Assembly: GCA_964396785.1 (NCBI GenBank)
Contig: CAYNFU010000001.1
Span: forward strand, 943 to 64,942
Reading direction: 5' to 3'
Source of the DNA: an uncultured Gammaproteobacteria bacterium
Lineage (GTDB): Bacteria > Patescibacteriota > Microgenomatia > UBA8517
DNA: 64,000 nucleotides
Under the pieces are notes generated by a model. It was given only the letters and a program-made list of their open reading frames with translations, made no database searches and was not told the origin of the DNA. Numbering within the stretch: the stretch's first letter is position 1; each line of letters starts with the position of its first letter. A program made the translations under genes and the position numbers. Below are positions 16,381 through 50,680 of the stretch, piece after piece.

Positions 16381-18267
16381 ATGTGTGGAATAGCCGGAAA
16401 AATATATTTGGACTCAAGATCCGTTAGCCACGAGCATCTTAGGAAAATGTCCGAAAAAATCGTACATCGTGGACCGGACGACGATGGTGTATATATAAGC
16501 CGCGACAAAAAGGTAGGGTTAATTAACCGTCGTCTTGCAATCATTGACTTATCAAAAGCCGGACATCAGCCGATGCTATACAAGGGACGCTACGCAATTA
16601 CCTTTAACGGAGAGGTCTATAATTTCCAGGAAGAAAGACGCAAGTTAGAAAAAGAAGGATACCAATTTAAATCAAACACCGACACTGAAGTGATTTTAGC
16701 CCTCTATGACAAATACGGAGTGTCCTTTTTAAAAAGACTTAGGGGGATGTTTGCTTTTGCAATCTATGATGACAGGGAAAAAACAATTTTTCTTGCCAGA
16801 GATAGAATCGGCAAAAAACCTCTTAAGTATTTCATTAACGGAGGCACTTTTATTTTCGCCTCAGAGCTAAAAGCAATTCTTACCCAATCCGAAGTCAAAA
16901 GGACGATTGACTACAATGCAATTCAGTCTTACTTAGTCTACGGCTATACCCCTTCACCCCTTACTGGTTTTGAAGGTATAAAGAAGCTTCAACCCGGCCA
17001 CTACATAATAATGAACCTGAGGCGAAAAACATTTGAAATCAAAAGATACTGGGAACCGGTTTTCAGAAATAAGCTTCATTTAACCGAGAATGAATGGTGC
17101 GACAGAATTCTTAATACTTTAGAGCAGTCCACCCGACTCCGGATGATCTCGGATGTACCAATTGGGGCTTTTGTGTCGGGTGGGGTTGATTCAAGTGGCG
17201 TCATTTATGCAATGAGTAAATTCTCGGATAAACCCATAAATACTTTCACAATTACCTTTGACGATAAAAAGTGGAGTGAAGCCAAATATGCTCAAAATCT
17301 AGTCAAAAAATTCGGGACGAATCACCACGAGCTTCTGGCTAAACCCGAGAATGTCGAAATCCTTCCTGAACTCGCATACCAATATGAGGAGCCATTTGCG
17401 GATGCAAGCAATGTTGTAACTTATATGGTGAGTCGTCTTGCAAGAAAGTATGTCACTGTCATATTAAACGGAGACGGAGGAGATGAGAATTTTGCGGGTT
17501 ACCCAAACAGATACTTTAGACTTGGCCGTGACGTGAACTTTTACAATTGGATAAACACAATAAGGCCCTTGGCAGTTGCCGGGTTAAAGGCATTAGCTAG
17601 AGTTTCAAAAAGTACTCTTGTTACCAGGCCAACCAATTTTTTTGAAAAATCAAAGCTTCCTCTATATCAGCGCTTCGCCTCCTACAACCAAATATTTTCT
17701 TTTGACGAAATCGTAAGTATGTCAACGGGTGCCTTGGTCGATGTAAACAACACACAAAATCCATACACAATTGTAGAAAACTGTTTCAAAATGTTTAAAG
17801 GCAAAGATCTAAAGGACGCGGGGCTCAAATTTGACCTTTTATACTGGCTACCGGATGACCTTTTGGCCAAAGTTGACATCGCTTCCATGGCCAGCTCACT
17901 TGAAGCCCGCTCTCCTCTACTGGACCATCATATGATAGAGCTTGCAGGTAAAATTCCATTTAGATTAAAGGTAAAAAATGGAGAGAGTAAATATATCCTC
18001 AAAAAGGCTCTTGAGACAGTCATCCCTAGAGAAAATTTATACAGGCCCAAGATGGGCTTCGGAGTTCCCCTCCATCTTTGGTTCTCTGGAAAATTAAATA
18101 GCTATACTAAAGGAGTTCTACTTTCCAAAAAGGCAAAGGTTAAAGGGTTAATTAGACAAGATGCAATCAAAAATATGCTTGAAGGTCATTCGGAAACCAA
18201 CGATTTCGGCCCACGCCTCTGGGCACTACTTTCACTGGAGCTCTGGTTAAAGAGCTTCTTCAACTAA
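16381..18267 (+). CDS. asnB: Asparagine synthetase (glutamine-hydrolysing) family amidotransferase, AsnB-like
   Basis: 628 aa. It starts MCGIAG (Cys2 is the class-II GATase nucleophile). The central VSGGVDSS is the PP-loop ATP pyrophosphatase motif. It is one of only two plus-strand genes in the window. Confidence 0.9.
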   Translation: MCGIAGKIYLDSRSVSHEHLRKMSEKIVHRGPDDDGVYISRDKKVGLINRRLAIIDLSKAGHQPMLYKGRYAITFNGEVYNFQEERRKLEKEGYQFKSNTDTEVILALYDKYGVSFLKRLRGMFAFAIYDDREKTIFLARDRIGKKPLKYFINGGTFIFASELKAILTQSEVKRTIDYNAIQSYLVYGYTPSPLTGFEGIKKLQPGHYIIMNLRRKTFEIKRYWEPVFRNKLHLTENEWCDRILNTLEQSTRLRMISDVPIGAFVSGGVDSSGVIYAMSKFSDKPINTFTITFDDKKWSEAKYAQNLVKKFGTNHHELLAKPENVEILPELAYQYEEPFADASNVVTYMVSRLARKYVTVILNGDGGDENFAGYPNRYFRLGRDVNFYNWINTIRPLAVAGLKALARVSKSTLVTRPTNFFEKSKLPLYQRFASYNQIFSFDEIVSMSTGALVDVNNTQNPYTIVENCFKMFKGKDLKDAGLKFDLLYWLPDDLLAKVDIASMASSLEARSPLLDHHMIELAGKIPFRLKVKNGESKYILKKALETVIPRENLYRPKMGFGVPLHLWFSGKLNSYTKGVLLSKKAKVKGLIRQDAIKNMLEGHSETNDFGPRLWALLSLELWLKSFFN

Positions 18268-28574: not shown

Positions 28575-29648
28575 TTACATTTTCTCGGGCAGAGGATTTA
28601 TTAGGTGAGTCTTAATAGTCTCTATAAGAAAAATCCACATATCTAAAAGTATGACTGTGCCTGCCAATACTATTTCATATTTTAAATAATTGTCGGAAAG
28701 GTAGAAAAAAGAAATTATAGTGATTAAATTAACCATAATAACGATAAAAACCAGGGGCAATTTGTTAATCAATCTTACTATTTTACTTTCCTCTTTATTA
28801 ATAGCGAAGTTTAACATTTTTGCAGCCACAAGCGAGAATGCTAAAACTATTGCCAGCATAAAGAAAAGAAACGATAGACTAAATGAACGATTAAATAGTA
28901 CAATCGCCGTAAGAAAAAGGGCCGACATCGGCATTAATAAAGAATTCGGTTTGATAAGAACGATTGTCTTTAGATTTCGCCACCCGTCTGTAAATCTCGA
29001 CAATCTTGGGGGACTACCCCTCTTGTCTTTATAAAGACTAATAGGCACTTCAGCATACCTTCCTTTATTTAAGGATGTCTTTATTAGTAGCTCACTGTCC
29101 CATTCCATACCAGAGTTTCTCATGTGCAACTTTTCATAAAAGGATTTTTTAACAAGTCTCATTCCAGAGTTCGAATCGGTGGTGTTAATCCCATAGAGCT
29201 TGCGAATTAAAAAAGTAAGTATTGGGGTCCCAATATATCGATTCAAAAATGGCATTGCACCGGGGTGGATTTTCCCTTTGAATCGAGAACCTAACACCAA
29301 GTCGTATTTTTTTACCAAGAATTTCATAAACTTCCCCAGCTCATAAAAATCATAACTCATGTCAGCATCCGCAAAAAAAACATAAACACCACTCGAATTA
29401 AGTATTCCCCAGTGAAGTGCCGCCCCGTATCCCCTGATAGGAACTTTGACCAATTTTGCCTTTTTAGTAGATCTCACTATCTTTAGCGAATTGTCCGTGC
29501 TTCCATTATCGGCAACTATCAATTCGAAAGAATCATTAAAATATCTTTCGGCAGCAGTGTATGCCGCAAAAATCGCATCACGAATAGTCTTTTCTTCATT
29601 AAGGCAAGGAATTACAATTGACAAAATTATTTTTTTACGTTTTCTCAT
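28575..29648 (-). CDS. GT2 polyprenyl-phosphate sugar synthase (GtrB / ArnC / DPM1-like) with C-terminal TM helices
   Basis: 357 aa. ILSIVIPCLNEEKTIRDAIFAAYTAAERYFNDSFELIVADNGSTDNS is a GT2 domain of approx. 230 aa. It is followed by 3-4 hydrophobic helices (LFLTAIVLFNRSF...FMLAIVLAFSLVAAKMLNF...). Confidence 0.8.
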   Translation of the reverse strand: MRKRKKIILSIVIPCLNEEKTIRDAIFAAYTAAERYFNDSFELIVADNGSTDNSLKIVRSTKKAKLVKVPIRGYGAALHWGILNSSGVYVFFADADMSYDFYELGKFMKFLVKKYDLVLGSRFKGKIHPGAMPFLNRYIGTPILTFLIRKLYGINTTDSNSGMRLVKKSFYEKLHMRNSGMEWDSELLIKTSLNKGRYAEVPISLYKDKRGSPPRLSRFTDGWRNLKTIVLIKPNSLLMPMSALFLTAIVLFNRSFSLSFLFFMLAIVLAFSLVAAKMLNFAINKEESKIVRLINKLPLVFIVIMVNLITIISFFYLSDNYLKYEIVLAGTVILLDMWIFLIETIKTHLINPLPEKM

Positions 29649-30993
29649 TAATGAATTTTTCTACTCCCTTTCTTTTCTTATTCGATACTCTCGTAGTAAT
29701 AATGTTCAATAAGATAAAACCAGTTACGGGCACCAAATAGGAAGAGGACCTTGCCAATGATCTACCTACTGTTTCCCACCAATCTGTTTGGAATGATACA
29801 AAATATAGTTGAAATGTGTAGAGGGCTAGACTGAGAAGCACAATAAAGAATAGGAATAGTATCCCCCCGTTTCTTCTTATTTTATGCCAACCAAAAAGAA
29901 CCGCCGCCAAAGTAGTTAGGTGAATTAAAAGGGGAATTCCCCAAGACCTTAGAATGATGACTAAGACATTTACCCAGGACCCGGTAAAAATACCCACGAG
30001 GAGTTCAGTTAGATATAAGCCTGAAAAATTAAGGACACTCGGATTTTCACCTACAACCTTAATAAAATACGACCAAGTGAAATACTCCAATAAACAAAAA
30101 ACAGCTAATAAAATTCCGGGGATTAATACGTTTTTAATAGCCTTTCCTATGAGTGAAGTAATGATAAAGGAAAGTAGAACCACCAGCCAAACAGGTTCAA
30201 GAAATCTTATCCAAATTGAGGTGGAAATAAAAAAGGTCCCGAAAAGTAATTCCCAAAGCTTTTTGTTTCTTAGATAGTTAAAAATCAGGAATATTCCAAA
30301 AACCAGATGTAGTGTATAAGGTAGATTTGTGTATTCCCTTATTGAGATTAAAAAAATGACGTCGTTTGAGGCAACAATCAATGAAAGGAAGGCTGCAGTT
30401 TTCTCACCAAGACTCTTACGTGTCAAAAAGAATACTCCAATAGTAAGAAGCAGTAAGTTTAAAGAATAATATATTCCTACAGGAAACTTGCTTACGTCAA
30501 ATACCTTTTCCCAAAAAAAGTGTGCGATAGATGTATATGGAGGATAGAGAAGATAGTAATACTTATTTAAGTTATCAAAACGAGAAAGAGCTGGCATATC
30601 GGAAAACTTCATCCCAGCCTCTAAAAACTTTGCCCTTGCATCATAGAGGGCAACTGCATCCCAATGAATAGAGTCTTTATTAAGATTCAGATATACCGAG
30701 GTTCCCACGACGACAAAAGTTAAAAGAAGAAAAACCAAAGCCAGAATGTTTATTTTGAAAAAACCCTTTTTAAGCCACTTTATTTGTCCTATATGCAAAG
30801 TTTTAACAAACGCGTAAATACCAAAAATTGCGAGTCCCGCAAGGCTAACTAATTCAACCATTCCAGGAACACTCGAGGCATACTCATCTTCCAGATTAAA
30901 AAAGAATAACTTTTTAAAAAGCATTAAAAATACGATAAGTGTTGAGATAACAAATTGAGGCATACTAGAAATATACTTGATAAACCGAGCCAT
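29635..30993 (-). CDS. Polytopic membrane protein, unknown family
   Basis: 452 aa with about 12 TM helices. No recognised motif. It is co-directional in the operon. Confidence 0.55.
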   Translation of the reverse strand: MARFIKYISSMPQFVISTLIVFLMLFKKLFFFNLEDEYASSVPGMVELVSLAGLAIFGIYAFVKTLHIGQIKWLKKGFFKINILALVFLLLTFVVVGTSVYLNLNKDSIHWDAVALYDARAKFLEAGMKFSDMPALSRFDNLNKYYYLLYPPYTSIAHFFWEKVFDVSKFPVGIYYSLNLLLLTIGVFFLTRKSLGEKTAAFLSLIVASNDVIFLISIREYTNLPYTLHLVFGIFLIFNYLRNKKLWELLFGTFFISTSIWIRFLEPVWLVVLLSFIITSLIGKAIKNVLIPGILLAVFCLLEYFTWSYFIKVVGENPSVLNFSGLYLTELLVGIFTGSWVNVLVIILRSWGIPLLIHLTTLAAVLFGWHKIRRNGGILFLFFIVLLSLALYTFQLYFVSFQTDWWETVGRSLARSSSYLVPVTGFILLNIITTRVSNKKRKGVEKFINEKT

Positions 30994-31948
30994 CCTCAGT
31001 TTTCAAAACCGCATCTAGTCTTTCGTATTTAATTTCCGTTTTTTCGTCAAAAATAATCACTCTACTCTCTTCATGAAAGATAGGCCAATGAGTTGAATCA
31101 GACAAAGGGTCAATTTCAACAAAGTAGGCTACCTTTATTTGCTCTGCCAGCTCCTGATTATCCAAAAGTGCCCCACTTATTAACTCTCTTGGAAAGAGGA
31201 AATATCTCAAAACCGGCTGATTGCCTATTGCAGGCCATTTTTCTCCTTGAGGAGGGTGAATTACTTTTACATCTTCCGGTGAGTTTTCTTTCAAAAGAAC
31301 AATATATTTATAATGAACACCCATCCTACTTTCGAAACCCCCTTTTACTTCTCCCAGTAATCGAGTCCAGCTGACAAATGGAGAAAGAGAGAGAATTATT
31401 AATCCAGAAAGGCCGGTCAAAGCCAATAAAAATGAATATCCTTCCCTTCTTGCTAGCCCACTGGCCCCTTGACTTTTTTGTCTCAAAAGCTTGAAGGATC
31501 GATTGTAAACCAGCATAAATAAAAATACGAAAAGCTCAAGAGCCGTAACAAAGGACATGAGCTCCAATTGAGGAACAGTTAGTCCAAAGTGCCCATAAAG
31601 AAAATTGGGGTAATTCCTCTCCTCTAGAGCTAGAAGAAATCTTGCTAATGTTAAAAAGGTCACACTGGAAATAGAAAGAAAAATCAAAGTTTTTCTTTGG
31701 AGCACTGATATTTTTTTATCAATAAATCTCTTGAACCAAAGAACTATTATCAAAAGCACGATAGAAGAAATAAAAAAAGGAAAATAGTATAAAAGTGTAG
31801 AAAGACCAATTATTCGGAAGTTTTGAAAGTCTTTATTTACAACAAAATAAAGACGAAAGACACTTAAAAGAGGGGACAACAAAAAGGTGAGCCAAAGTAG
31901 CACCAAAAGGACATGACTATAAATAATACGTAGTATTTTTTCTTTCAT
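30965..31948 (-). CDS. Membrane protein with an approx. 130 aa C-terminal soluble domain, unknown family
   Basis: 327 aa with about 6 TM helices, followed by a hydrophilic domain (ESRMGVHYKYIVLLKENSPEDVKVIHPPQGEKWPAIGNQPV...). Confidence 0.5.
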   Translation of the reverse strand: MKEKILRIIYSHVLLVLLWLTFLLSPLLSVFRLYFVVNKDFQNFRIIGLSTLLYYFPFFISSIVLLIIVLWFKRFIDKKISVLQRKTLIFLSISSVTFLTLARFLLALEERNYPNFLYGHFGLTVPQLELMSFVTALELFVFLFMLVYNRSFKLLRQKSQGASGLARREGYSFLLALTGLSGLIILSLSPFVSWTRLLGEVKGGFESRMGVHYKYIVLLKENSPEDVKVIHPPQGEKWPAIGNQPVLRYFLFPRELISGALLDNQELAEQIKVAYFVEIDPLSDSTHWPIFHEESRVIIFDEKTEIKYERLDAVLKTEDGSVYQVYF

Positions 31949-33528
31949 ATTTCAAGGCTACGAATCTCCCAATAATATCTAAACCCTTCGTTTAAAAAGG
32001 GGGGATTTTTCAAGGTTTGAATTGGTCTGGACCCAAAATTATTCCTAAAGGCGTTCGGATCGATCCGAGAAACATGATAGGCTTTCGAATCTAAAAGAGT
32101 ATAGTTTGAGTTTGAAAGACTTTCTAAATTTATAACCGACTCCAAAGATGACCTGGTAAATAAATCTCCTTCAGAAGGGGGTGGTAGTTTAAGTCTCTCT
32201 ACCTCGGGTTTACCTCCATGGAAATAATTAAGATGCATTGGAATCTCATAAACTACTTCCCAGTTGTCAATTGTTTCCTTGGCGTTTAAATAAACGGTGC
32301 CCTCCTTAACTTTTGCTATTGCGTCGACCTGGTCTTTTTCAAACTGAATAAATGTTGCAAACCAGTTTCTGTAATTTAAAGTTCTTGCGATATTTAAGGG
32401 TGCTTCCACGAAAAAAAGGTTACAAAGGGTAAAAATTGCTAGAAACTGAAAAGCAACTTTCTTCCAACCTGAAAAAACACTCATTTTTTCAATCTCATTC
32501 ATCACTCTTGAAATTAGTATCGTTACCAGGATAGAAAATGCATAAATCGATGGAAGAAGATACCTATCTAGTACATATCTCCATGGAAATAGTATTACTG
32601 TAAATGAGACAAAAACCAAAAGCCAATAAACAAAATGGGATCCTGCTATCCCCTGCCGGAACTTTTTAATAATCAAGGTAAAAGGAGCTGCAATAAGAAA
32701 AATTTCAAAGAAGGGACTTAAGGAATTTGAAAGAAGTTTTAAGAAATTTAGGCCATTTTGAAGAATAAACAATAGGTTAAGCCTGTAATTACTTGAGTAG
32801 TTAGGTCCTGTCTGAGCTCCACCGAGGAACATTTTTACTAAAATAAATATTGCCCCCGATACAATTAACATGGTAATTAAAGCTTTTTTATGAAGTACTT
32901 TTGGAAATAGTATTCCCAAAATAAACACCGCAGGCAAGATCGCAATTGATGCTTCCTTAAGCAAAAGCAAAAAAATTAGAGTCAGACTCAAAATGATAAT
33001 TGCAGGTCCTCTCAACTTTTTAGATATATGCTCAAGATTCAAAAAAAGTAAGGAAAATATTCCCAAAAATAGCACCATATATGGCTCGATAGGGCCTAGC
33101 CTTATCATATTTTCGCTAAAAGAATAATTGGTGACAAAAAGGGCGGCACCCAAGGTAACGGCAATAGCATGGGATCTTGCCGAGAGCGCCGACAAGACAA
33201 AAAGTATTACCAGGGCAAGTCCAAATCCGTAAATCCTGAGTTCGTGTTGAAATTGTGCGTCAACTCTTGGAGGCTGATATAAAATACCTTGAATGAGCCA
33301 GTAACCAGTTCTTGATAAACCAACGTCTGGAAGTACTTCGATAATCTGAGACTTAAAACTAGTACATTTACGCTCGACTAAACATTCTCTTACGTAAATC
33401 CCATACTTAATTGATTGACCGTCGTCAATAAGAGAGAAGTTTTTGAAAATTTGGGGGCTCAAAACATACCTTGCATAAAAAAGATAAGCTAACGCTACAA
33501 AAATCAAGAAAAATATTTTTTTACCCAT
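31945..33528 (-). CDS. Polytopic membrane protein, unknown family. Paralog of the protein at 35013..36623.
   Basis: 527 aa. It shares NFSLIDDGQ, ATNYSFSENMIRLGPIEPY and a C-terminal EIPMHLNYFHGGKPEVERLKLPP region with the 35013..36623 protein (NFSLVDDGQ / ATNYSLSENIIRLGTNEPY / EVPIHLKFFYGIEPNLEILKETIP). Confidence 0.6.
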   Translation of the reverse strand: MGKKIFFLIFVALAYLFYARYVLSPQIFKNFSLIDDGQSIKYGIYVRECLVERKCTSFKSQIIEVLPDVGLSRTGYWLIQGILYQPPRVDAQFQHELRIYGFGLALVILFVLSALSARSHAIAVTLGAALFVTNYSFSENMIRLGPIEPYMVLFLGIFSLLFLNLEHISKKLRGPAIIILSLTLIFLLLLKEASIAILPAVFILGILFPKVLHKKALITMLIVSGAIFILVKMFLGGAQTGPNYSSNYRLNLLFILQNGLNFLKLLSNSLSPFFEIFLIAAPFTLIIKKFRQGIAGSHFVYWLLVFVSFTVILFPWRYVLDRYLLPSIYAFSILVTILISRVMNEIEKMSVFSGWKKVAFQFLAIFTLCNLFFVEAPLNIARTLNYRNWFATFIQFEKDQVDAIAKVKEGTVYLNAKETIDNWEVVYEIPMHLNYFHGGKPEVERLKLPPPSEGDLFTRSSLESVINLESLSNSNYTLLDSKAYHVSRIDPNAFRNNFGSRPIQTLKNPPFLNEGFRYYWEIRSLEI

Positions 33529-33552
33529 GGCTACCTAATTATGCAACAGGTC

Positions 33553-34197
33553 TTACTCCCTTGCGTATTGGCGCATGTTGCTTTTAGCCTTTTTCTTTTC
33601 GAGAACAAAAATTCCCAATCTGAATGGGAATCCTGCACAAATGAGTCTGAATTTTTCAAAATGCAAAACATTAAATTTTCTATTTTTGAATACATTAAAC
33701 CACCCCGCCTCAGTTTTATTGCTATGGGGGTGTCCCTTGAATTCCCAATTAACAATACTGTCTTCTATTAATGTAAGCCATTTTTCAACAGGGCTCTCGA
33801 AAAGATCTTCCATAATGATTATCCTCTTTGACGATACACGAATAGCCTCGTCTAAAACTGATAAAGGTTTCTTACAATGATGCAAAACTGCAATAAGTAA
33901 AGATGTATCAAAACTTTCATCGGGAAACGGGAGTTTCTTACCATCGTAAATTATCACTGGTATCGACTTGCACAAAGGATTTAAGCGAACGTCAATACAG
34001 GTAATATTCTTATTTTTCGCCTCCATAATCCCCTTAGCGACAAAACCTGTTCCGGTTCCAATGTCCAAGATTTTTTCTTTTTTGTCTATAAATGGAGAAA
34101 TTCTTTTGACAATTTGCTTTGCCCGCTTTTTATATTCATCCTCCATAATCTTGCGGGTGAAGGAAATTTTTTCTAAGAGGTAAAATGGAGAAGACAT
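33553..34197 (-). CDS. Class I SAM-dependent methyltransferase
   Basis: 214 aa. ILDIGTGTGFVAKGI (motif I), FDTSLLIAVLHHCKKPLSVLDEAIRVSSKRIIIME. Confidence 0.8.
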   Translation of the reverse strand: MSSPFYLLEKISFTRKIMEDEYKKRAKQIVKRISPFIDKKEKILDIGTGTGFVAKGIMEAKNKNITCIDVRLNPLCKSIPVIIYDGKKLPFPDESFDTSLLIAVLHHCKKPLSVLDEAIRVSSKRIIIMEDLFESPVEKWLTLIEDSIVNWEFKGHPHSNKTEAGWFNVFKNRKFNVLHFEKFRLICAGFPFRLGIFVLEKKKAKSNMRQYARE

Positions 34198-34224
34198 TTT
34201 TTAAAACCTTTTCTAATTCAATCT

Positions 34225-34911
34225 TTAGTTATTTTTTTCTTTGGTCACCAGATATCCCTGATGAATCATTAGATATTTCAAAAAACTAAATTTTTCGAAT
34301 TGATCAAAAAATGGGTTGGGTAAGATAAAGTTAAAATGATATTTCTTGGTAACTTTTCCTCTTCTTTCTAGTGCTCGCCTTATTTCCCAAGGATAGTACC
34401 AATATTCGTTTCCGTGATATGGCCTCACTCCGATACTGCATAGTAAGGTATATAAAGGCTTGAATAATTTATTTGGAGTAGTTAAGACAAGATAGCCGCC
34501 TTTTTTAAGCACCCGGAAAAGCTCACTTAATACCTTGTTCTGTTTGTTGACGTGCTCGATAACTTCAGTGCATAAAACTAAGTCGAAAGAATTATCTTTA
34601 TAAGGTAATTTTTGAGCGGGAGCTACAACAAACTTACCTCTTGGATATCTTTTGCTACTAATATTTATTAGCCTTTTTCCGATATCAATCCCGTGTACCT
34701 CTGCACCAAGTTTACCTGCTCGAAAAGCAAAATAACCTAGACCACATCCAACATCTAAAAATTTTTTTCCTTTTAGGGGAATTTCATCGAACAAAGTTTT
34801 ATAAACAACTCTCAATCTTTTATTTGTTTCGGGTTTATGGATCTTTTCTTCCCAATCTTCAGCAATACTGTCATAAAAAAGTTCTTTATTTTTGGTGCCA
34901 TTAATTTTCAT
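34225..34911 (-). CDS. Class I SAM-dependent methyltransferase
   Basis: 228 aa. FLDVGCGLGYFAFRAGKLGAEVHGIDIGKRLI, FDLVLCTEVIEHVNKQNKVLSELFRVLKKGGYLVLTTPN. Confidence 0.85.
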   Translation of the reverse strand: MKINGTKNKELFYDSIAEDWEEKIHKPETNKRLRVVYKTLFDEIPLKGKKFLDVGCGLGYFAFRAGKLGAEVHGIDIGKRLINISSKRYPRGKFVVAPAQKLPYKDNSFDLVLCTEVIEHVNKQNKVLSELFRVLKKGGYLVLTTPNKLFKPLYTLLCSIGVRPYHGNEYWYYPWEIRRALERRGKVTKKYHFNFILPNPFFDQFEKFSFLKYLMIHQGYLVTKEKNN

Positions 34912-35012
34912 TTTTTATGCTTAAACAATTTTTGAGCACGACTAACTATACCAGAAGGTATGGTCAAGAAACTACTGACAGATATTTCGCAGTAAAATAA
35001 CTGAAAATCTTA
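34912..35012 (-). promoter_or_regulatory. Candidate extended -10 TGGTATAGT (minus strand, 34945..34953) in the 101-bp gap upstream of the methyltransferase gene at 34225..34911
   Basis: The minus-strand sequence reads ...TTGACCATACCTTCTGGTATAGTTAGTCG...(approx. 30 nt)...ATG. It shares the GGTATA[AG]T core with the elements at 24926 and 38144. Confidence 0.35.
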
Positions 35013-36623
35013 TTAATCAACCTTTCCTATTTCCCAGTAGTACTCCTGATAATCACTGACAGGCGGGTTAATTATAGTAGAGATTGGCTGAGAAAAGAAT
35101 CTGCTACGAAATTCTAAAGGATCTATCCAGAGAACAAGATATTTTTTACTCTCTAAAACTTCATAACCTACTTTTTTCAGCTCATCCCCAGAATATTTTT
35201 TGTCAAAAGTAACCTGAGAAAAAATATATCCCTTACTCGGGATTGTTTCTTTGAGAATTTCTAAGTTAGGTTCAATTCCATAGAAAAATTTTAAATGAAT
35301 TGGAACCTCATAGAGCCACTCCCAATTGTTTATATTTTCTTTTGCATTAACAAATATTTTTTCTCCATTGTATTTTGCTATTAGCCTAACCTGTTCCCTT
35401 TCGAATTGTGTAACCAGAAGAAACCGGCTCTGATAGTTTACAGTTTTGGCCAGATTTAAAGGAAAACCCCTCAAAAAAAGTCCCAATACAATAACTATTA
35501 AAGCAGCATTGAAAAAAACACGCATTTTCTCATTTTTTACTTGGAAGAAATATTTCCGAAAGATTTTTACAGCTTGGTCAAACAAAAACATTGTAAAAAT
35601 AATTATTCCGAAAACCGCTACAAGCTGATATCTCTCCAAAACAAATTCCCACGGAAAAAGGATCACTGTAAAAAATAATGCAAAAAAACCCCAAAAATAC
35701 ACTCTGCCAACCTTAAATTCCACCCTCGCTGTTTTATTAAGCATTAAGAGTACTAACAAAATAAGGGATATCTTAAAAAATGGGGATAGAGAATTTGAAA
35801 GAAGCACCAAGTTTTCCTTTGATTTTGCAATAATTGCTCCCAAGCTAGTTACGTAGTTACTCGTATAGAGTGGTATCTCTGTTGAAATAGTCGAAGACAA
35901 AAATCTAGTAATAGTTATTCCTGCAAGAAGAATAATAAAAGGTATGCCAGCTAATAAACTTGCCCTTTTAAAAGCTTTTTTGCCAAAAACCAAGATTTCA
36001 GTAATGAAAATTGTCGGCAAAATGGCGATATTACTCTCCTTTATTAAAACAGTAATGGTTAGAATAAAAATCGGGACCCAAGGGATTTTAGTTCTTCTAT
36101 CTCTTCTCACCAAAGTGTGAAGATAAATAAGAGAAAATGCTGCAAGAAACAATATCTGGTATGGCTCATTTGTACCAAGACGAATTATGTTCTCACTAAG
36201 AGAATAATTAGTTGCAAATAGGAGTGCTCCGCCGATAACGAATACGGAGCTCACACTCAAATCGAGTAGGGCTAGTGACAGTAGTATTACTGCGGCATAT
36301 CCGACCACATATACTCTAAAAATGTGGTGCAGCTGAGCATTATTTCGAAACACCTCATAGACAATATTATTTATAAGCCAATAAGTCGGCCTGAACCGAC
36401 TTGTCCCGAACTCAAAAGTCTGGTCTATAAATTTGGAGCATTTTAATCTTAAAACACAATCTTCTAAATATGAGGAGCTTTGAATTAAAACTTGCCCGTC
36501 ATCTACCAGAGAAAAATTGGTGAGCTTCCATGGTTTAAGAAAAATCGATGCGTATAAGAAATAAAAAACTGTAATAATCATCAACACCAGAAGGTTATTT
36601 TTTACTAGAGGTGGAATTCTCAC
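35013..36623 (-). CDS. Polytopic membrane protein, unknown family. Paralog of the protein at 31945..33528.
   Basis: 536 aa. See the shared motifs listed for 31945..33528. It has about 12 TM helices and a C-terminal soluble domain. Confidence 0.6.
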   Translation of the reverse strand: MRIPPLVKNNLLVLMIITVFYFLYASIFLKPWKLTNFSLVDDGQVLIQSSSYLEDCVLRLKCSKFIDQTFEFGTSRFRPTYWLINNIVYEVFRNNAQLHHIFRVYVVGYAAVILLSLALLDLSVSSVFVIGGALLFATNYSLSENIIRLGTNEPYQILFLAAFSLIYLHTLVRRDRRTKIPWVPIFILTITVLIKESNIAILPTIFITEILVFGKKAFKRASLLAGIPFIILLAGITITRFLSSTISTEIPLYTSNYVTSLGAIIAKSKENLVLLSNSLSPFFKISLILLVLLMLNKTARVEFKVGRVYFWGFFALFFTVILFPWEFVLERYQLVAVFGIIIFTMFLFDQAVKIFRKYFFQVKNEKMRVFFNAALIVIVLGLFLRGFPLNLAKTVNYQSRFLLVTQFEREQVRLIAKYNGEKIFVNAKENINNWEWLYEVPIHLKFFYGIEPNLEILKETIPSKGYIFSQVTFDKKYSGDELKKVGYEVLESKKYLVLWIDPLEFRSRFFSQPISTIINPPVSDYQEYYWEIGKVD

Positions 36624-37378
36624 TTTTTTCTAAGAAATATTTGTACAGACCCTCCCAGGTATTTTACAAGAGGAATGAATTTAAGGTTATCGAATATTTT
36701 ATCAACTATCTTAAGAATACTTAGTGGTATAAATCTCGCAGGATATATAAACTCAGACATTGAAATATTGATAACTTTAAAGTCTTTAAAAACACTATTT
36801 AAACCTAGGGGATTAACTGCCCATTCGTCTTTCGAATCACCAACTAAACTTTTTAGCTTCCTATTAGACTTTATTATATAAACGACTGGGTTAAGGATGT
36901 TGGGTTCATAAAAAAATGCTAACCCCCTTTTTTTTAGAACTCTCAATAGCTCATTTTTAAATCGAGGTATGTCTAAATGATGTAAAACGTAGAATCCGAA
37001 GACTACGTCAAAAAAGTCAGATTTGAACCCGCTACTATATGCACTTCGGGCAAGAAACCGAACATTTTTGACTCCTGCGCATTTCTTCTTTGCCACCTGC
37101 AAAATCTTCTCAGAAATATCTATGGCAATAATTTTTGACTTGGGAAAGTAATTACATATTCTTTTGGTATACTCTCCTGTACCACACCCAATTTCAAGAA
37201 TTGATATCGGTTTGTTCCCTAAACTTCTTCGAATTGAACTGACAAATTCCAAAACTTTCTTGTCAATTTTGTATTTTGTAAAGTCACCTTCATACCCATA
37301 ATTTGTGTCGTAAGCCAGAGCGGCTTCATTAAAATGTTCTTTTTCGCGAGCTTCCAGTTTTTTAATATTTAATTTCAT
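36620..37378 (-). CDS. Class I SAM-dependent methyltransferase
   Basis: 252 aa. ILEIGCGTGEYTKRI, FDVVFGFYVLHHLDIPRFKNELLRVLKKRGLAFFYEPN. Confidence 0.85.
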   Translation of the reverse strand: MKLNIKKLEAREKEHFNEAALAYDTNYGYEGDFTKYKIDKKVLEFVSSIRRSLGNKPISILEIGCGTGEYTKRICNYFPKSKIIAIDISEKILQVAKKKCAGVKNVRFLARSAYSSGFKSDFFDVVFGFYVLHHLDIPRFKNELLRVLKKRGLAFFYEPNILNPVVYIIKSNRKLKSLVGDSKDEWAVNPLGLNSVFKDFKVINISMSEFIYPARFIPLSILKIVDKIFDNLKFIPLVKYLGGSVQIFLRKK

Positions 37379-38136
37379 GGGACGCTTAGCTTTGCAACAA
37401 CTGAAATTCCTAACGGATATTTAAAATATTTGACCATTCGAACCTCGCTGGTAAATAAAAACTTGAGTAATTCATTTATAAGACTCACGTGGGCGACGTC
37501 GAAATTAACACTATTATCATAGTTGCTTAAACTCCTTAAGGGTTTAAGTCTGCTCAAAAGCCTCATTGAAATTATTGGTAGGGAAAAAAGGAAATTGAAA
37601 TAACTAATAAAATCTACTTTCAATCCTGCTTTTTTCGCCAACATTCTAAACCTTCTTCTTGTGTATCTTCTCTCGTGTCCTTGATTAGTATCGTGCCCAG
37701 ACCAAATAAAGGGAAGTGCCGGGCTTGTAATAATAATTTTCCCTTTCTTCCTCAAAACTCTTGCCGCCTCTTTAACAACCCCAGCATCATCTTCAATATG
37801 TTCAATCACATCAAGAATTAACACTACGTCAAAGAAACCATTCTTGAAAGGTAAATTTAAAGCGTTAGCCTTAAAAATATTTTTGTGTCCCCTTTTTTTT
37901 GAAAACTGAATCGCTTTTTGAGAAGTATCAATGCCATAAAGTTCGGCTTTTGGAAATGAAGTTTTAAGGAATGAAAGAGTCTCACCAGTGCCACAACCAA
38001 CATCTAAAATTCTCTTATATTCCAATCCGCCAAGTAGTCCTTTAATTAGTTCTCGCCTACCTTCCCACCACCAATGAATTTTTTCAATCTCGTTGAATTT
38101 CTCAAGAAGGAAGTCGTCCATGCTCTTTGTTCTCAT
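37375..38136 (-). CDS. Class I SAM-dependent methyltransferase
   Basis: 253 aa. ILDVGCGTGETLSFL, FDVVLILDVIEHIEDDAGVVKEAARVLRKKGKIIITSP. Confidence 0.85.
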   Translation of the reverse strand: MRTKSMDDFLLEKFNEIEKIHWWWEGRRELIKGLLGGLEYKRILDVGCGTGETLSFLKTSFPKAELYGIDTSQKAIQFSKKRGHKNIFKANALNLPFKNGFFDVVLILDVIEHIEDDAGVVKEAARVLRKKGKIIITSPALPFIWSGHDTNQGHERRYTRRRFRMLAKKAGLKVDFISYFNFLFSLPIISMRLLSRLKPLRSLSNYDNSVNFDVAHVSLINELLKFLFTSEVRMVKYFKYPLGISVVAKLSVP

Positions 38137-38181: not shown

Positions 38182-39666
38182 TTAATAACCTAAAAATTGT
38201 CTTGATTTAAGTCTGATGCCTCCTTCTTGAGAACCTTCTAAACTTGAATAACTTGCGCTAATTTCTCCTTTCCAAAACACTTCAAAATAATTCTGGTCGG
38301 ATAAAACTACTTTAAGCAATGCCGTAGGGCTCCAGGGCAAATCTCTATCTTCTTGAGTATCGTAAAAAGCAACACTCTTAACACCCGATACTAATTCCTT
38401 GTTTTTCAATAAGTAGTCATGCACATTTTTGGCAGTATAACCTCCTCTGGTAATCCAATGTGTTTTCTTTGTGAGACCAATTGTCATAAAAGAAAGTATA
38501 AGCCAGATAATCATAAATAGGGATGCAACAAAATACTGTCTTTTAGCGGTAAGGAGATAGGAAATAATGATTACTATTCCTATTAGGGGTAAGGTCAGAT
38601 AAAAGGTGAACTTGTGAAGGGGAAGAAAAAGAACAGGAAGCAAAGTAACAAAAAACCAGGCTATACAAAAGATAAACAAATTTAATAAATTGCGCTTTGT
38701 AAACAAATTCTTGATGTTCCTAAAAACTTTGTAGAGAAGAATTATTACTGCTCCGGAGAATAAAATAAAAATCGGAATTATCTCCTTTGACCAGAATTTA
38801 AAGAGATTGGGATTAAACTTTAGACCAGGTCCTACAAAATCCACGAGCATCTCAGGCAAATTGAATGCCCAGAGGCCGTACCAACCAAAGGTATTAAAAA
38901 GTCTTCTGATTGAGAAGTCCCAAAGGTAACTGTCTCCCGTGGCAAAGCCGTAATAGCTTACGCGCATATAGAGATAGACTGCAAGAATTAAGAGAAAGGG
39001 TATGAGTGAGGTCAGGAGTTCACCAAGCTTCAATTTATTTTTCTTTTGTTTTTTCATTAACCAATAAATAGGGATAAATATCATGGGCAAAACAACGGCG
39101 GTTTCCTTTGAAAGTAAGCTCAAAATAAATGTCATAATACTAAAAACTAAATGCTTTTTATCAGACTTCTCTAGAAATTCAATAAAAAATAATACCGAAA
39201 GAATGAAAAACAACGTCATCCCTAACTCCTGAAACGTGGCTAAATAATAAAGATGGCCGAAGTGGGAAGCACTTGTTGCATACAAAAACGCAGCAATTAA
39301 TGGGATTTTATCCGTTGTCCGAGGTTCGAAGTTAGACAATAACATTTTGGTCAATCTGTAGGTAAGATAGGTAACTGCAAAAAATACAATAAAAGAAATT
39401 ATATGAAGGCCGAGTGGATAAAAGTTAAAAAGCTTCCAAGCCAGAAAATAAAAAACTTGAGTGGTTAAAGGCCGATACATTCCCAAACCGTCTGGTCCCT
39501 GGGTCAGATTAAAGAAGTTCAAAAATTCTTTGAGAGAGCCTGCTTGGGAAATTTTGAGTAAGAAAAAATCGTCATGGGTGTAAAAAGTAAACAGTGAAGG
39601 AAAATAAAGAACAAAGGAAATGAAAAGGATAATAAATAGGTATTTAGTCGACCGAAAAAATTTCAT
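38182..39666 (-). CDS. Polytopic membrane protein, unknown family (possible GT-C-like)
   Basis: 494 aa with about 12 TM helices. The first loop is FYTHDDFFLLKISQAGSLKEF. The short C-terminal soluble domain is GEISASYSSLEGSQEGGIRLKSRQ. Confidence 0.5.
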   Translation of the reverse strand: MKFFRSTKYLFIILFISFVLYFPSLFTFYTHDDFFLLKISQAGSLKEFLNFFNLTQGPDGLGMYRPLTTQVFYFLAWKLFNFYPLGLHIISFIVFFAVTYLTYRLTKMLLSNFEPRTTDKIPLIAAFLYATSASHFGHLYYLATFQELGMTLFFILSVLFFIEFLEKSDKKHLVFSIMTFILSLLSKETAVVLPMIFIPIYWLMKKQKKNKLKLGELLTSLIPFLLILAVYLYMRVSYYGFATGDSYLWDFSIRRLFNTFGWYGLWAFNLPEMLVDFVGPGLKFNPNLFKFWSKEIIPIFILFSGAVIILLYKVFRNIKNLFTKRNLLNLFIFCIAWFFVTLLPVLFLPLHKFTFYLTLPLIGIVIIISYLLTAKRQYFVASLFMIIWLILSFMTIGLTKKTHWITRGGYTAKNVHDYLLKNKELVSGVKSVAFYDTQEDRDLPWSPTALLKVVLSDQNYFEVFWKGEISASYSSLEGSQEGGIRLKSRQFLGY

Positions 39667-40451
39667 CGAATCCCTAAAATGTTTAGAGTAATTATGCGTC
39701 CTAAATTATGTAAATAATGGAGCATAAGAATAACTTGATTACTAGTATGTTTCTCTACAATCTTCTCGTCCTCAAATAATATCTTCTTAAATTCGGTCGT
39801 CGATATTGAACCTCTTGAAAGACGAAAACCAGATAAAACGTTATCCAGTATTTTTGGCATCTTAGCTTTCCCCAATCTTAACCACATTTCATACTCCGTG
39901 ACTCCAGTAGCTGTTCCTGTAAAAGGTCCATAATTTTTATAAGCACTTTTACTTAAAAAGACAGATGGTTGAAAAAGGTAGTTGACACAAAGTAGCCAGG
40001 AATAATTATTTAGCTTCAAAAGATAATTTTTGTAGGAATCTACCCAAGAAGCAATTTCGTTCCCATTCTCGTCTATCGTTTTTCCCCTTCCTGCAAGCCA
40101 CAAGGTATTTGGATGTTTTGCAAAATACTCTCCAACTTCTCTTAAGACGCCATCCTGATAAACGTCGTCGGCATTAAGATAGGTTAATATTTCTCCACTT
40201 ACCTCCTTAAGTCCTTTGTTTATTGCATCCTTCTGCCCTTCTCCTCTCTTTTCTAGCCAGCTGATAAGTTTAGGGTATTTTTGAGCGTATTTTTTTATAA
40301 CTTCCTGGGTTCCGTCATTCGAGCCTCCGTCCCGGATTATTACTTCCAGATTTGGATATTTCTGGTCAATAATTGACTGAAAGGTAGAACCAATAAAGTC
40401 TACTTTATTAAATGAAGGAATTACTATAGAAATTTTGGGTAAAGCTGCCAT
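39663..40451 (-). CDS. Glycosyltransferase family 2
   Basis: 262 aa. ISIVIPSFNKVDFIGSTFQSIIDQKYPNLEVIIRDGGSNDGT ... YLNADDVY (DxD). Confidence 0.8.
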   Translation of the reverse strand: MAALPKISIVIPSFNKVDFIGSTFQSIIDQKYPNLEVIIRDGGSNDGTQEVIKKYAQKYPKLISWLEKRGEGQKDAINKGLKEVSGEILTYLNADDVYQDGVLREVGEYFAKHPNTLWLAGRGKTIDENGNEIASWVDSYKNYLLKLNNYSWLLCVNYLFQPSVFLSKSAYKNYGPFTGTATGVTEYEMWLRLGKAKMPKILDNVLSGFRLSRGSISTTEFKKILFEDEKIVEKHTSNQVILMLHYLHNLGRIITLNILGIR

Positions 40452-40454
40452 TCA

Positions 40455-40796
40455 TTACTCGTTCTTCTTTTTTAATCCCTTAAGGGCTTCTTTTCTAATA
40501 AATCTTTCGAATTTCTTTTCTATTCTTCTAGTCCTTACATAGGCTAATGCTACCATGGTAATCACCAAAACTAGCCCTCCCATTATCATTAGATCAAGAA
40601 GTCTTGAGATAAAAAACGTTTGAGCAATGCCCCGCAGTGTATCAGGAAAAAGAACCGTATAAAGGGCACTTCCCCATGCTCCCATCCAAATGGTTATCTC
40701 AATTTTATTTAGTTCTTTTCTCCTGAAGTTCACATAAGCTAAGTAGACCATGACCATGGCAAAAATTATCGCAACAAATTGTAGGCCTAATATCAT
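40455..40796 (-). CDS. Small membrane protein (2-3 TM) sandwiched between GT2 genes. DUF2304/GtrA-like candidate.
   Basis: 113 aa. MILGLQFVAIIFAMVMVYLAYVNF ... LLDLMIMGGLVLVITMVALAYV. It ends in a basic tail (RRIEKKFERFIRKEALKGLKKKNE). Its position directly downstream of a GT2 gene is typical of small accessory membrane proteins that partner polyprenyl-P-sugar synthases. Confidence 0.45.
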   Translation of the reverse strand: MILGLQFVAIIFAMVMVYLAYVNFRRKELNKIEITIWMGAWGSALYTVLFPDTLRGIAQTFFISRLLDLMIMGGLVLVITMVALAYVRTRRIEKKFERFIRKEALKGLKKKNE

Positions 40797-41440
40797 CTTA
40801 ATTTAAACTGAATAATTTCAAATATAATTCCAAACCCCTGTTCAATGCTTAAACCCTTAAACTTATCATAGTATAGTGTAGCCACGGGCACCTCGCAATT
40901 TTTGAGATGGTGTTTGCCAGTTAAAGCTACGATTTCAGTTTCGACACTATAACCCGAAGAATACCATCTAATTTTCTCGAAAGACCTCCTGGTAAAAGCT
41001 TTAAACCCACAGAGAATATCTTGGGCATTAATCCCATAAAGAATACTTACAATAGTAGTTATCAATTTGTTACCCAAGAGTCTAACCAGGGGGATTTTCC
41101 CAAAATTCCTTACCCCAAAAACAACGTCGCATATTTTAAGGGCTTTAACAAACTTCGGAAGATCGCTAGCCTTGTGCTGTCCATCTGAGTCCATAAGAAT
41201 AACTGCTTCCGCCCCAAGCTTAAATGCAGCCAGGCAACCCGTTTTTAATGCAGCCCCCTTACCAAGGTTAATAGAATGCCTTAGAACGTAGGGAGTATAT
41301 CTTTTAGCAATTTGCGAGGTTTTATCCTTCGACCCATCGTCTATTACAATAAACGGAAATTTCTGATCTTTAACATCTGATAACACTTTCCCAATTCTTT
41401 TCTCTTCATTAAATGCCGGAATTACAATAAATATTTTCAT
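40793..41440 (-). CDS. Glycosyltransferase family 2 (DPM1/GtrB-like soluble domain)
   Basis: 215 aa. MKIFIVIPAFNEEKRIGKVLSDV...FIVIDDGSKDKT ... VILMDSDGQH (DxD-Q motif typical of DPM1-like GT2). Confidence 0.8.
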   Translation of the reverse strand: MKIFIVIPAFNEEKRIGKVLSDVKDQKFPFIVIDDGSKDKTSQIAKRYTPYVLRHSINLGKGAALKTGCLAAFKLGAEAVILMDSDGQHKASDLPKFVKALKICDVVFGVRNFGKIPLVRLLGNKLITTIVSILYGINAQDILCGFKAFTRRSFEKIRWYSSGYSVETEIVALTGKHHLKNCEVPVATLYYDKFKGLSIEQGFGIIFEIIQFKLR

Positions 41441-42195
41441 TTCTTTAATCTAAAAAATAAGCCTACTGTGTCAATAAACATTTTTATAGAAGCACTAAAA
41501 ATCTTAGAAGAAGTGTCAAGGGTTGAAGACTTCTCCGCCTTAACCATTTTGACAAATATCGGGGCTTCATGAATTTTCTTATAACCCAAAATATTCGCCT
41601 GCATCAGTACCTCTATATCGAAAGCGAATCCGTTTATATGAAGACGGGGAAGTATTTTTTTAACTACACTTCCTTTGAAGATTTTTACTCCAGCTTGGGT
41701 ATCTGTCACCTTTGGCCTAAAAAGAATCTTAACCAGGAAATAATAAATAACTGAAATAATTTGCCTAAGGGTAGGATATTCAACTTTTGAGTTTGGGTGT
41801 CTTTTTGAACCAACAACAATATCAGCGTTTTCCTTTTTTTGAACCTCAAGAAGCTTAACTATACTTTCTGGATCTATCTCAAGTCCCGCGTCAATAAAAC
41901 CTACCAATTTCCCCCGAGCTTTCATCATTCCATATCTCACCGCATATCCCTTGCCCCTATTATTTTTATAACTCAAAACTTTGATTTTTCGATTTTTCTC
42001 AGTAAGTTCTTTTACCAAACTAAAAGTATCGTCAACTTTTCCGTCAACTACACAAATTATTTCGTAGCTATTCGTAAGCCTTCCCAGTACTAAATCAACT
42101 TCCTTAACACTTTTTACAATAAAGCTCTCGGCTTTATATGCAGGAATAATGATAGACAAGTGGGGCTTATGTAATAATCCCTTTCCCATGCCCAA
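41437..42195 (-). CDS. Glycosyltransferase family 2 (DPM1-like)
   Basis: 252 aa. LSIIIPAYKAESFIVKSVKEV...YEIICVVDGKVDDT ... GFIDAGLE. Confidence 0.8.
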   Translation of the reverse strand: MGMGKGLLHKPHLSIIIPAYKAESFIVKSVKEVDLVLGRLTNSYEIICVVDGKVDDTFSLVKELTEKNRKIKVLSYKNNRGKGYAVRYGMMKARGKLVGFIDAGLEIDPESIVKLLEVQKKENADIVVGSKRHPNSKVEYPTLRQIISVIYYFLVKILFRPKVTDTQAGVKIFKGSVVKKILPRLHINGFAFDIEVLMQANILGYKKIHEAPIFVKMVKAEKSSTLDTSSKIFSASIKMFIDTVGLFFRLKK

Positions 42196-50671: not shown

Positions 50672-50680
50672 CGAATCATT

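Follow-up and report, generated by a model that had tools for sequence, protein, structure and literature searches.

What supplies the sugars used by the many membrane glycosyltransferases encoded in a 64,000-nucleotide stretch of DNA (hereafter the window; contig CAYNFU010000001.1, positions 943 to 64,942) from an uncultured bacterium placed by GTDB in the Patescibacteriota, and what part is played by the glycosyltransferase family 2 (GT2) gene at 28575-29648 (hereafter the focal gene)? We consider it likely, from sequence comparison and structure prediction, that the focal gene encodes an integral-membrane, non-processive GT2 that makes sugar-phosphate-polyprenol (sugar-P-polyprenol) for adjacent polytopic, outward-facing transferases, and that it is one of several donor modules in the window. 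The fold, motifs, architecture and gene neighbourhood of the protein are shown here, and from them we infer which lipid is the acceptor, which sugars are used, in which direction they are supplied and what flips them. All of the open reading frames (ORFs) named in a first-pass annotation of the window were recovered on the minus strand at the positions listed in Table 1.

The focal protein matched the Pfam GT2 domain PF00535 over residues 10-174 (E 1.8e-24), and Kyte-Doolittle hydropathy analysis placed four hydrophobic segments within residues 234-345. An AlphaFold2 (AF2) model built from 44 sequences had a predicted local distance difference test score (pLDDT) of 93.4 and a predicted template modelling score (pTM) of 0.87. 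The model comprises a GT-A domain, helices at 134-152 and 218-232, and then transmembrane (TM) helices at 234-250, 256-284, 299-316 and 319-350, which correspond to the interface helices IFH1 and IFH2 and to TMH1-4 in the layout of the dolichyl-phosphate mannose synthase (DPMS) of Pyrococcus furiosus, PfDPMS. The second interface helix (218-232) is strongly amphipathic, with a hydrophobic moment of 0.41-0.56 against a protein mean of 0.25; this helix and the Lys/Arg-rich loop between TM2 and TM3 fit a cytoplasmic catalytic domain. The top 19 Foldseek matches to the model were all PfDPMS, ArnC or GtrB, and the alignment with PfDPMS (PDB 5MLZ) covered the full length in 366 columns with a template modelling score (TM-score) of 0.58. 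The focal protein is therefore placed in the GT-A/GT2 group by a fold closest to that of the known polyprenyl-phosphate glycosyltransferases.

GT2-family proteins with C-terminal TM helices could also be processive polysaccharide synthases of the cellulose, chitin or hyaluronan type. However, the Q-x-x-R-W motif was found in neither the focal protein nor GT2b, the other membrane-anchored GT2 considered here, and both proteins are only 318-357 residues long, with 2-4 TM helices and no channel-forming domain. All four GT2 proteins (focal, GT2b, GT2c and GT2d) were nearest to polyprenyl-phosphate sugar synthases (PfDPMS, ArnC, GtrB, AglJ and PpgS) and not to processive synthases. A BcsA/HAS-type assignment was rejected on fold scores, the missing motif and size, and is effectively refuted. 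The first-pass annotation had taken these GT2s for polyprenyl-phosphate sugar synthases and had expected interface and TM helices in the anchored ones, and this was borne out: the helices are seen by hydropathy, in the AF2 model and by hydrophobic moment, and none of the four proteins falls into the processive type.

The three best NCBIfam models for the focal protein were all lipid-phosphate hexose synthases, namely AglJ (8.9e-24, 84 bits), PpgS (1.7e-17) and the haloarchaeal dolichyl-phosphate (Dol-P) hexose transferase (2.4e-17, 63 bits). The AglJ-type proteins differ in being shorter and in having a different membrane anchor. The family is large: a threshold of E <= 1e-3 gave 34,034 relatives, and one of E <= 1e-30 gave 695 cluster representatives. 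The exact focal protein is also encoded by NCBI assembly GCA_001792925.1 and by several groundwater-type metagenome assemblies. The E-values, the size of the family and the exact copies in public assemblies exclude chance. Full-length relatives at >=50% identity were found in Woesebacteria, Gottesmanbacteria, Amesbacteria and other metagenome-assembled genomes of the Microgenomates group, which belong to the candidate phyla radiation (CPR). Cyanobacteria, Planctomycetota, Abditibacteriota, Bdellovibrionota, SAR11 and a few archaea have proteins that share 40-47% identity with the catalytic domain (residues 8-250) and that end in divergent C-termini of their own, with 3-5 TM helices. Pfam scans of 71 family representatives detected neither GtrA (PF04138) nor any other TM-domain family, and a GtrA-like C-terminal domain was rejected for the family (0 of 71).

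Residues were mapped with a HMMER alignment of the focal protein to 5MLZ, and their conservation was followed in 44 close and 71 distant relatives; the roles of the PfDPMS residues are taken from PMC5526996. D94-A-D96 corresponds to Asp89-Ala-Asp91, which bind the metal and the diphosphate, and E18 to Glu12, which contacts the acceptor loop. R122 aligns exactly with Arg117, and R137 and T141 lie one register off Arg131 and Ser135 of interface helix 1 with the same four-residue spacing; these three PfDPMS residues bind the phosphate of Dol-P. E18, D94, D96, R122, R137 and T141 were invariant or nearly so in the close relatives, the DxD motif (D94-A-D96) was invariant in both sets, and D47, D94, D96, R122 and D158 were invariant across the distant ones. 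Three other positions are not conserved with PfDPMS: S98 stands at the metal-coordinating Gln93, Y99 at the mannose-contacting His94, and E182 at Lys178. S98 and Y99 are invariant in the focal clade, and ArnC also has Glu at the position of E182. By these comparisons the focal protein is predicted to function in the manner of a lipid-phosphate sugar synthase, but it lacks the signature of a bona fide DPMS, and it probably does not handle its sugar in the way that PfDPMS handles mannose. The first-pass annotation had named a DxD-Q motif as the check on these GT2s, with a mixed outcome: the complete motif is present in GT2b (DADLQ) and GT2c (DSDGQ), the focal protein keeps the DxD but not the Gln, and GT2d (DAGLE) has neither.

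We propose that at the cytoplasmic face the focal enzyme would use a nucleotide sugar to load a single sugar onto polyprenyl phosphate, with sugar-P-polyprenol as the product. D94 and D96 would hold the metal and the diphosphate, R122 would position the lipid phosphate together with R137 and T141 on the first interface helix, and the lipid tail would lie between the two interface helices seated on the 4-TM bundle. After translocation, the product would be the donor for the polytopic outward-facing transferases encoded alongside.

The gene neighbourhood of the family was analyzed in 77 non-redundant loci, in which proteins of >=400 residues with >=6 TM helices were counted as polytopic. Of the 77 loci, 39 had a polytopic protein adjacent to the focal homologue, 51 had one no more than two genes away and 58 no more than three; the per-gene frequency of such proteins was 30% at distance 1 and dropped to <=6% at distances >=8. 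An S-adenosylmethionine (SAM) methyltransferase lay immediately downstream of the focal homologue in 20 of the 77 loci, from cyanobacteria to CPR (L020:11125-11865, L003:7059-7754, L001:7070-7873 and 17 more loci), often followed by a polytopic protein, and the per-gene frequency of methyltransferases was 17% at distance 1 and about 2-7% further away. The conserved triad of synthase, methyltransferase and polytopic protein suggests a methylated sugar. The focal family is linked to large membrane proteins, not all of which are demonstrably GT-C.

In the window itself, the polytopic protein that overlaps the start of the focal gene has a similar 443-residue counterpart close to the focal homologue in L003 and L010. 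Homologues of the unknown-family protein next to it (30965-31948) adjoin this 443-residue gene in the same two loci (E 6e-9), so that the two genes travel together in relatives. On the other side, the carbamoyltransferase keeps its position with respect to the focal homologue in L017, and its place beside the focal gene hints at O-carbamoylated sugars. The next gene (24967-26790) is of a type found again in CPR relatives, where it lies 1-4 genes downstream from the focal homologue, and it matched neighbours of 620-655 residues in L001, L008, L013, L014 and L017. Only four homologues of it were found, one of which (P0274) carries PF13231 and is named 'ArnT-like'; a profile search against the PDB returned noise only, and its AF2 model (pLDDT 49.5) was unusable.

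Several results weigh against the assignment of the focal protein as a donor synthase. Its NCBIfam scores are far under the equivalog cutoffs (325 bits for AglJ and 375 bits for the Dol-P-hexose transferase). It has DADMSY where the known synthases have the Gln of DADLQ, and with S98-Y99 in place of that signature and Glu in place of Lys178, the donor and the sugar are not inferable; sugar or nucleotide specificity was likewise judged not inferable from the ADNGSTD and DADMSY motifs. The neighbourhood counts come from our own crude ORF calling and Kyte-Doolittle TM counts, with genes at greater distance in the same loci as their sole background. When 10 polytopic neighbours from other phyla were sampled, six had no Pfam family, and the other four were DUF2142, Wzy_C (L069), a marginal DUF3810 and a weak PMT_2 with TPR repeats. 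The polytopic neighbour at 29635-30993 reached PMT_2 only at E 3e-4 (21.5 bits, below the cutoff of 26.1) and did not match a hidden Markov model (HMM) built from the other 11 paralogues in a leave-one-out search, and it was not called a PMT_2/GT-C paralogue.

Some of these results would suit a membrane-anchored GT2 that glycosylates a different acceptor at the cytoplasmic face, such as a growing glycan linked to undecaprenyl diphosphate, a membrane glycolipid or a lipid-anchored polymer, with neighbours that are polymerases, ligases or exporters. Neighbours of the Wzy_C type (in L069, and at 5151-6506 in the window) or of no known family are in keeping with such a role, as are the absent DADLQ signature and the modest pairwise E-values to characterised synthases (about 1e-6). 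However, lipid-phosphate synthases come out consistently as the best matches by structure and by profile, conservation extends to the phosphate-binding Arg/Arg/Thr triad and to the pair of interface helices, and cytoplasmic chain-extending GT2s normally do not have a 4-TM bundle fused after interface helices. We regard another acceptor as improbable, and continue with the focal protein as a likely sugar-P-polyprenol synthase.

Among the known enzymes closest to the focal protein are the type-III DPMS (PfDPMS; PDB 5MLZ, 5MM1, 9EP0). In both, one polypeptide carries the GT2 GT-A domain, a pair of interface helices and four TM helices, and the counterparts of the DxD, Glu12, Arg117 and Arg131/Ser135 are conserved in the focal protein. 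In contrast, the identity is only 19-20%, DADLQH is replaced by DADMSY and Lys178 by Glu182, and PfDPMS comes from a hyperthermophilic archaeon while the focal host is a bacterium of the CPR. Under a strict motif definition, type-III DPMS are confined to archaea (PMC12992685). In the sense of Gandini et al. 2026 the focal protein fails the active-site signature (DADLQH, Lys178), but the GT2 plus 4-TM-helix layout is present. By its model the focal protein has the type-III DPMS architecture, and it belongs to a large unnamed bacterial family.

This likeness raises the possibility that the focal protein is bifunctional, its GT2 domain making the sugar-P-polyprenol and its 4-TM bundle flipping it, with no separate flippase for this module. 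Flipped Dol-P-Man has been seen inside the 4-TM domain of PfDPMS, and self-translocation of the product was suggested (PMC12992685, 2026); the polar TM pocket of the type-III enzymes consists of Asn248, Asn277 and Arg/Asn341, with the gating Phe338 (PMC12992685). The matching architecture and the full-length Foldseek alignment favour this view. TM4 of the CPR clade has invariant polar residues within W338-x-F340-x-x-E343-T-x-x-T347-H348, in which the F-x-x-polar spacing equals that of Phe338/Arg341 in PfDPMS; the profile alignment of the two proteins ends at TMH1, and F340-x-x-E343 is noted as a lead on TM4 only. Self-flipping would also agree with the lack of a GtrA-family gene in the window and of an EamA homologue near the 77 family members. 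However, even for PfDPMS self-translocation is no more than a hypothesis, conservation of the TM domain does not extend to the wider focal family, and the GtrA Pfam domain is found in none of its 71 representatives. The residue-level equivalence of TM4 is a tentative one, read from spacing; conservation within the CPR clade may merely mirror relatedness above 50% identity, and Glu at the position of a phosphate-binding Arg speaks against the same pocket chemistry. We consider self-flipping unlikely. It is part of a wider proposal, which we put forward as speculation with little expectation that it holds as a whole: that the focal family would be a large uncharacterised bacterial counterpart of the archaeal type-III DPMS, synthesising and translocating a non-mannose sugar-P-polyprenol, possibly methylated or charged, in a two-component partnership with a neighbouring polytopic transferase, in most cases an unclassified one, often together with a methyltransferase, and with no separate flippase.

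Table 1. Coordinates of the focal gene, its neighbours and the other synthase, transferase and transporter genes of the window (aa, amino acids; nt, nucleotides)
Feature	Coordinates	Strand	Length (aa)	Characteristics
Focal gene (GT2a)	28575-29648	-	357	GT2 catalytic domain followed by a pair of interface helices and a C-terminal 4-TM domain; candidate synthase of polyprenyl-phosphate monosaccharides, PfDPMS-like in architecture
Polytopic protein	29635-30993	-	452	~9 TM; stop overlaps focal start by 14 nt; possible transferase partner
Unknown-family protein	30965-31948	-	327	5 TM; no Pfam match
NodU/CmcH-type carbamoyltransferase	26783-28558	-		PF16861 5e-64, PF02543 1e-47; NodU 3e-35; 16 nt downstream of focal gene
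Distant ArnT/PMT_2-like GT-C candidate	24967-26790	-	607	~10 TM; conserved W-D-E..Y-H loop
GT2b	60728-61684	-	318	PF00535 E 3.8e-26; LDADLQNDP; two C-terminal TM helices
Polytopic gene upstream of GT2b, first	61686-63002	-		Marginal match to GT-C paralogues
Polytopic gene upstream of GT2b, second	62999-63988	-		PMT_2-type GT-C paralogue
GT2c	40793-41440	-	215	Soluble GT2 (no TM segment); DSDGQH; GacI/PpgS-type catalytic subunit
DUF2304 membrane protein (GacJ/Rv3632 family)	40455-40796	-	113	PF10066 1.8e-14, 54 bits vs 25.5 cutoff; overlaps GT2c by 4 nt; predicted activator and anchor subunit
GT2	39663-40451	-		Pfam; directly downstream of DUF2304 gene, with the next
PMT_2 GT-C	38182-39666	-		Pfam
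GT2d	41437-42195	-	252	Soluble GT2 (no TM segment) related to PfDPMS/GtrB; D-A-G in place of DxD
PIG-V/Gpi18-like GT-C candidate	42206-43354	-	382	~9 TM; no own Pfam match
Array of six PMT/PMT_2-type GT-C paralogues	46536-48149, 49004-50671, 50681-52453, 52429-54108, 54893-56578, 56575-58266	-		Pfam, paralogue HMM
EamA/DMT transporter	48150-49004	-		PF00892 E 3e-26, two repeats, ~9-10 TM; inside GT-C array
Wzx/MOP-type flippase candidate	21324-22604	-		PF01943 4.7e-16

The focal protein and GT2b had been grouped in the first-pass annotation as two membrane-anchored GtrB/DPM1-like GT2s. Both are anchored, but they are of different types, the focal protein being 4-TM and PfDPMS-like and GT2b being of the 2-TM GtrB/ArnC type. 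GT2b aligned end to end with ArnC (PDB 9BHC, E 2.8e-43, residues 6-313) and GtrB (5EKP, 2e-30, residues 3-315), and it shares DADLQ and the two C-terminal TM helices with these polyprenyl-phosphate glucosyl and 4-deoxy-4-formamidoarabinose (Ara4FN) transferases (PDB 5EKP, 8VXH, 9BHC). In contrast, the focal protein has a TM domain of four helices, and its match to ArnC is no better than about 1e-6, although it shares the Glu of ArnC at position 182. GT2b is accordingly predicted to be a full-length homologue in the GtrB/ArnC family of polyprenyl-phosphate glycosyltransferases. Its scores were below the NCBIfam equivalog cutoffs for ArnC (169 vs 529 bits) and PgfS (128 vs 500 bits), and because of the ArnC shortfall its sugar is not assignable. 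Of the two polytopic genes upstream of GT2b, the second matched the paralogue at 56575-58266 with E 8.8e-36, and the first matched the paralogue HMM at 2.6e-7.

GT2c matched the NCBIfam models PpgS (2.7e-33 over 2-219 of 226) and AglJ (3e-28), and PfDPMS at 5e-10; its 115 bits against the PpgS model are below the 370-bit equivalog cutoff, and the match is one at family level. Its pairing with the DUF2304 gene recurs in L005, L017 and L086, and the order GT2c-DUF2304-second GT2 is kept in L005 and L017. Similar pairs are GacI/GacJ of Streptococcus pyogenes, a synthase of undecaprenyl-phosphate-linked GlcNAc (GlcNAc-P-Und) with its DUF2304 activator, and PpgS/Rv3632 of Mycobacterium tuberculosis, which makes GalNAc-P-polyprenol. 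GacJ, a DUF2304 protein of 113 residues, binds GacI, whose Km for undecaprenyl phosphate (Und-P) it lowers, and Rv3632 likewise stimulates PpgS (bioRxiv 10.1101/180810). The window pair has the same make-up, a soluble GT2 of about 215 residues followed by a 113-residue DUF2304 protein, with GT-C genes on both sides of the module; it differs in its CPR host and in the second GT2 (39663-40451) that consistently follows the pair. Because of the PpgS match, the overlap with the DUF2304 gene, the recurrence of the pair and these two precedents, GT2c and the DUF2304 protein are predicted to be the catalytic subunit and the small activator subunit of a synthase of the GacI/GacJ or PpgS/Rv3632 type. 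Its product is probably a polyprenyl-phosphate-linked N-acetylhexosamine (HexNAc-P-polyprenol). The first-pass annotation had rightly seen a small membrane protein of 2-3 TM helices beside a GT2, but it missed both the DUF2304 identity and the GacI/GacJ-type pairing.

GT2c and GT2d had also been described as two soluble DPM1-like GT2s. Both are related to PfDPMS, but GT2d has DAG and not DxD. It matched 5MLZ at 2.4e-15 and GtrB at 7.5e-14, with DAGLE aligned to DADLQ, and the DAG is kept in its orthologue in Candidatus Woesebacteria bacterium RBG_16_42_24. Judged by this motif, either the Glu replaces the missing Asp or the protein may be non-catalytic, and its activity is uncertain.

Next to these synthases, potential users of their products are numerous. 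By Pfam and the paralogue HMM, a single PMT/PMT_2-type family of GT-C paralogues accounts for thirteen proteins of the window, with 61686-63002 as an additional marginal match, which bears out the GT-C enzymes expected by the first-pass annotation with at least 13 PMT_2-type paralogues. Six of them form the array at 46536-58266, which is interrupted by the EamA gene and by a 282-residue gene with 6 TM helices. A sequence search with the strong PMT_2 paralogue 56575-58266 against solved GT-C structures gave no matches. The protein at 42206-43354 had been called PIG-V-like, and this stands at family level: close homologues match PF04188 (PIG-V), and many of its homologues (52-72% identity) have a PF04188, PF13231 or PF09594 match and are annotated as 'Gpi18-like mannosyltransferase'. 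GT-C enzymes use lipid-phosphate-linked sugars as donors at the outer face of the membrane, and with 13 such paralogues the demand for several sugar-P-polyprenol donors is real. GT2b, the GT2c/DUF2304 pair and the focal enzyme together would provide the GT-C paralogues of this Woesebacteria-type island, at least 13 in number, with several different lipid-linked sugars, and a complete logic for more than one sugar, as claimed at first, is plausible.

There is more than one candidate for the flippase of these lipid-linked sugars. The EamA protein had been proposed for the sugars of the flanking GT-C enzymes. ArnE and ArnF are small proteins of the DMT superfamily, and the EamA gene lies directly between two GT-C genes, its stop adjoining the start of 46536-48149 and its start sharing one base with the end of 49004-50671. 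This arrangement is kept in RBG_16_42_24, where the EamA protein is 90% identical and the flanking genes are 60-87% identical. Flippases of several transporter families serve in the known three-component systems, none with direct biochemical proof (PMC11127046). However, a metagenome scan with EamA returned one locus, the RBG_16_42_24 contig, and an exact-sequence look-up returned near-identical assemblies only; since RBG_16_42_24 is syntenic throughout, the placement gives no independent support. An EamA homologue was found in none of the 77 focal-family loci within 10 kb of the focal gene, the best NCBIfam matches of the protein were metabolite-transporter models, and EamA proteins usually carry small solutes. 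A Wzx-type candidate is also present in the window, with a Wzx homologue in two of the 77 loci, and GacK, the proposed GlcNAc-P-Und flippase, is described as a Wzx-family protein (bioRxiv 10.1101/180810). Pfam scans found no GtrA-family gene in the window. With its placement giving no independent support, a Wzx candidate at hand and self-flipping proposed, we consider the EamA protein a doubtful flippase.

The genes of the window form an almost unbroken minus-strand run with a GC content of 35-42%, and nearly the whole window (3692-63988) is a single minus-strand glycosylation island. Besides the 13 PMT/PMT_2-type GT-C paralogues, it contains one PIG-V-like and several unclassified polytopic proteins, at least seven GT4 and at least nine GT2 proteins, seven methyltransferases, one Wzx-like gene and one Wzy_C-like gene; no initiating phosphoglycosyltransferase was recognised among the island genes of the window. 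The segment 40455-58266 is syntenic with a contig of RBG_16_42_24, with 60-93% protein identity, and the source organism is accordingly a Woesebacteria-type member of the Microgenomates group. In L017, from RBG_16_42_24, the focal homologue directly follows the block of GT2c, DUF2304, GT2 and GT-C genes, while the window has about 8.5 kb of extra genes between them (29635-38136). The identity is 57% for the focal protein and 90% for the EamA protein, which together with the extra genes points to modular reshuffling of the island.

Other features of the island were also noted. A tandem duplicated module at 31945-38136 consists, twice, of two methyltransferases followed by a protein of 527-536 residues with about 8-10 TM helices and without known family; the two membrane proteins match each other at E 3.5e-97. 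A flavin adenine dinucleotide (FAD) oxidoreductase of the amine-oxidase/phytoene-desaturase type (45253-46530; NCBIfam PRK07233, 418 bits, above cutoff) lies between a GT2 and the GT-C/EamA block, a position kept in the relative, and its substrate might be a lipid-linked sugar or the polyprenyl carrier. Two asparagine-synthase-type amidotransferases, at 16381-18267 on the plus strand and 58257-60086 on the minus strand, may amidate uronic acids or other glycan carboxylates. The TTG starts listed for 43351-44517 and 54109-54957 overlap the upstream genes by 124 nt and 65 nt, and the true starts are probably further downstream, because the L086 orthologues are shorter (360 and 266 residues).

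Synthesis, translocation and GT-C transfer follow the known three-component scheme (GtrA/B/*, ArnC/EF/T, Whitfield-type), in which the gene of a lipid-phosphate sugar synthase likewise lies beside GT-C-type polytopic transferases, and GT2b and GT2c/DUF2304 are additional members of known families. The island differs from these systems in having no identifiable flippase and in its unusual scale, as 64 kb hold three or more synthase modules and no fewer than 13 GT-C paralogues. As the pathway logic is established, the result is mainly solid annotation rather than a surprise. We found nothing specific in the literature on GT-C arrays or lipid-sugar synthases in CPR, and these bacteria are uncultivated, with cell envelopes that are almost unknown. 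Here, a Woesebacteria-type genome gives most of 64 kb to extracytoplasmic glycosylation that depends on lipid donors. The synthase assignments (4-TM PfDPMS-like, GtrB/ArnC-like and the GacI/GacJ-like pair) are concrete, expressible targets for finding the sugars that decorate these cells, and the 4-TM focal family is a bacterial test case for the self-flipping proposed for type-III DPMS-like enzymes.

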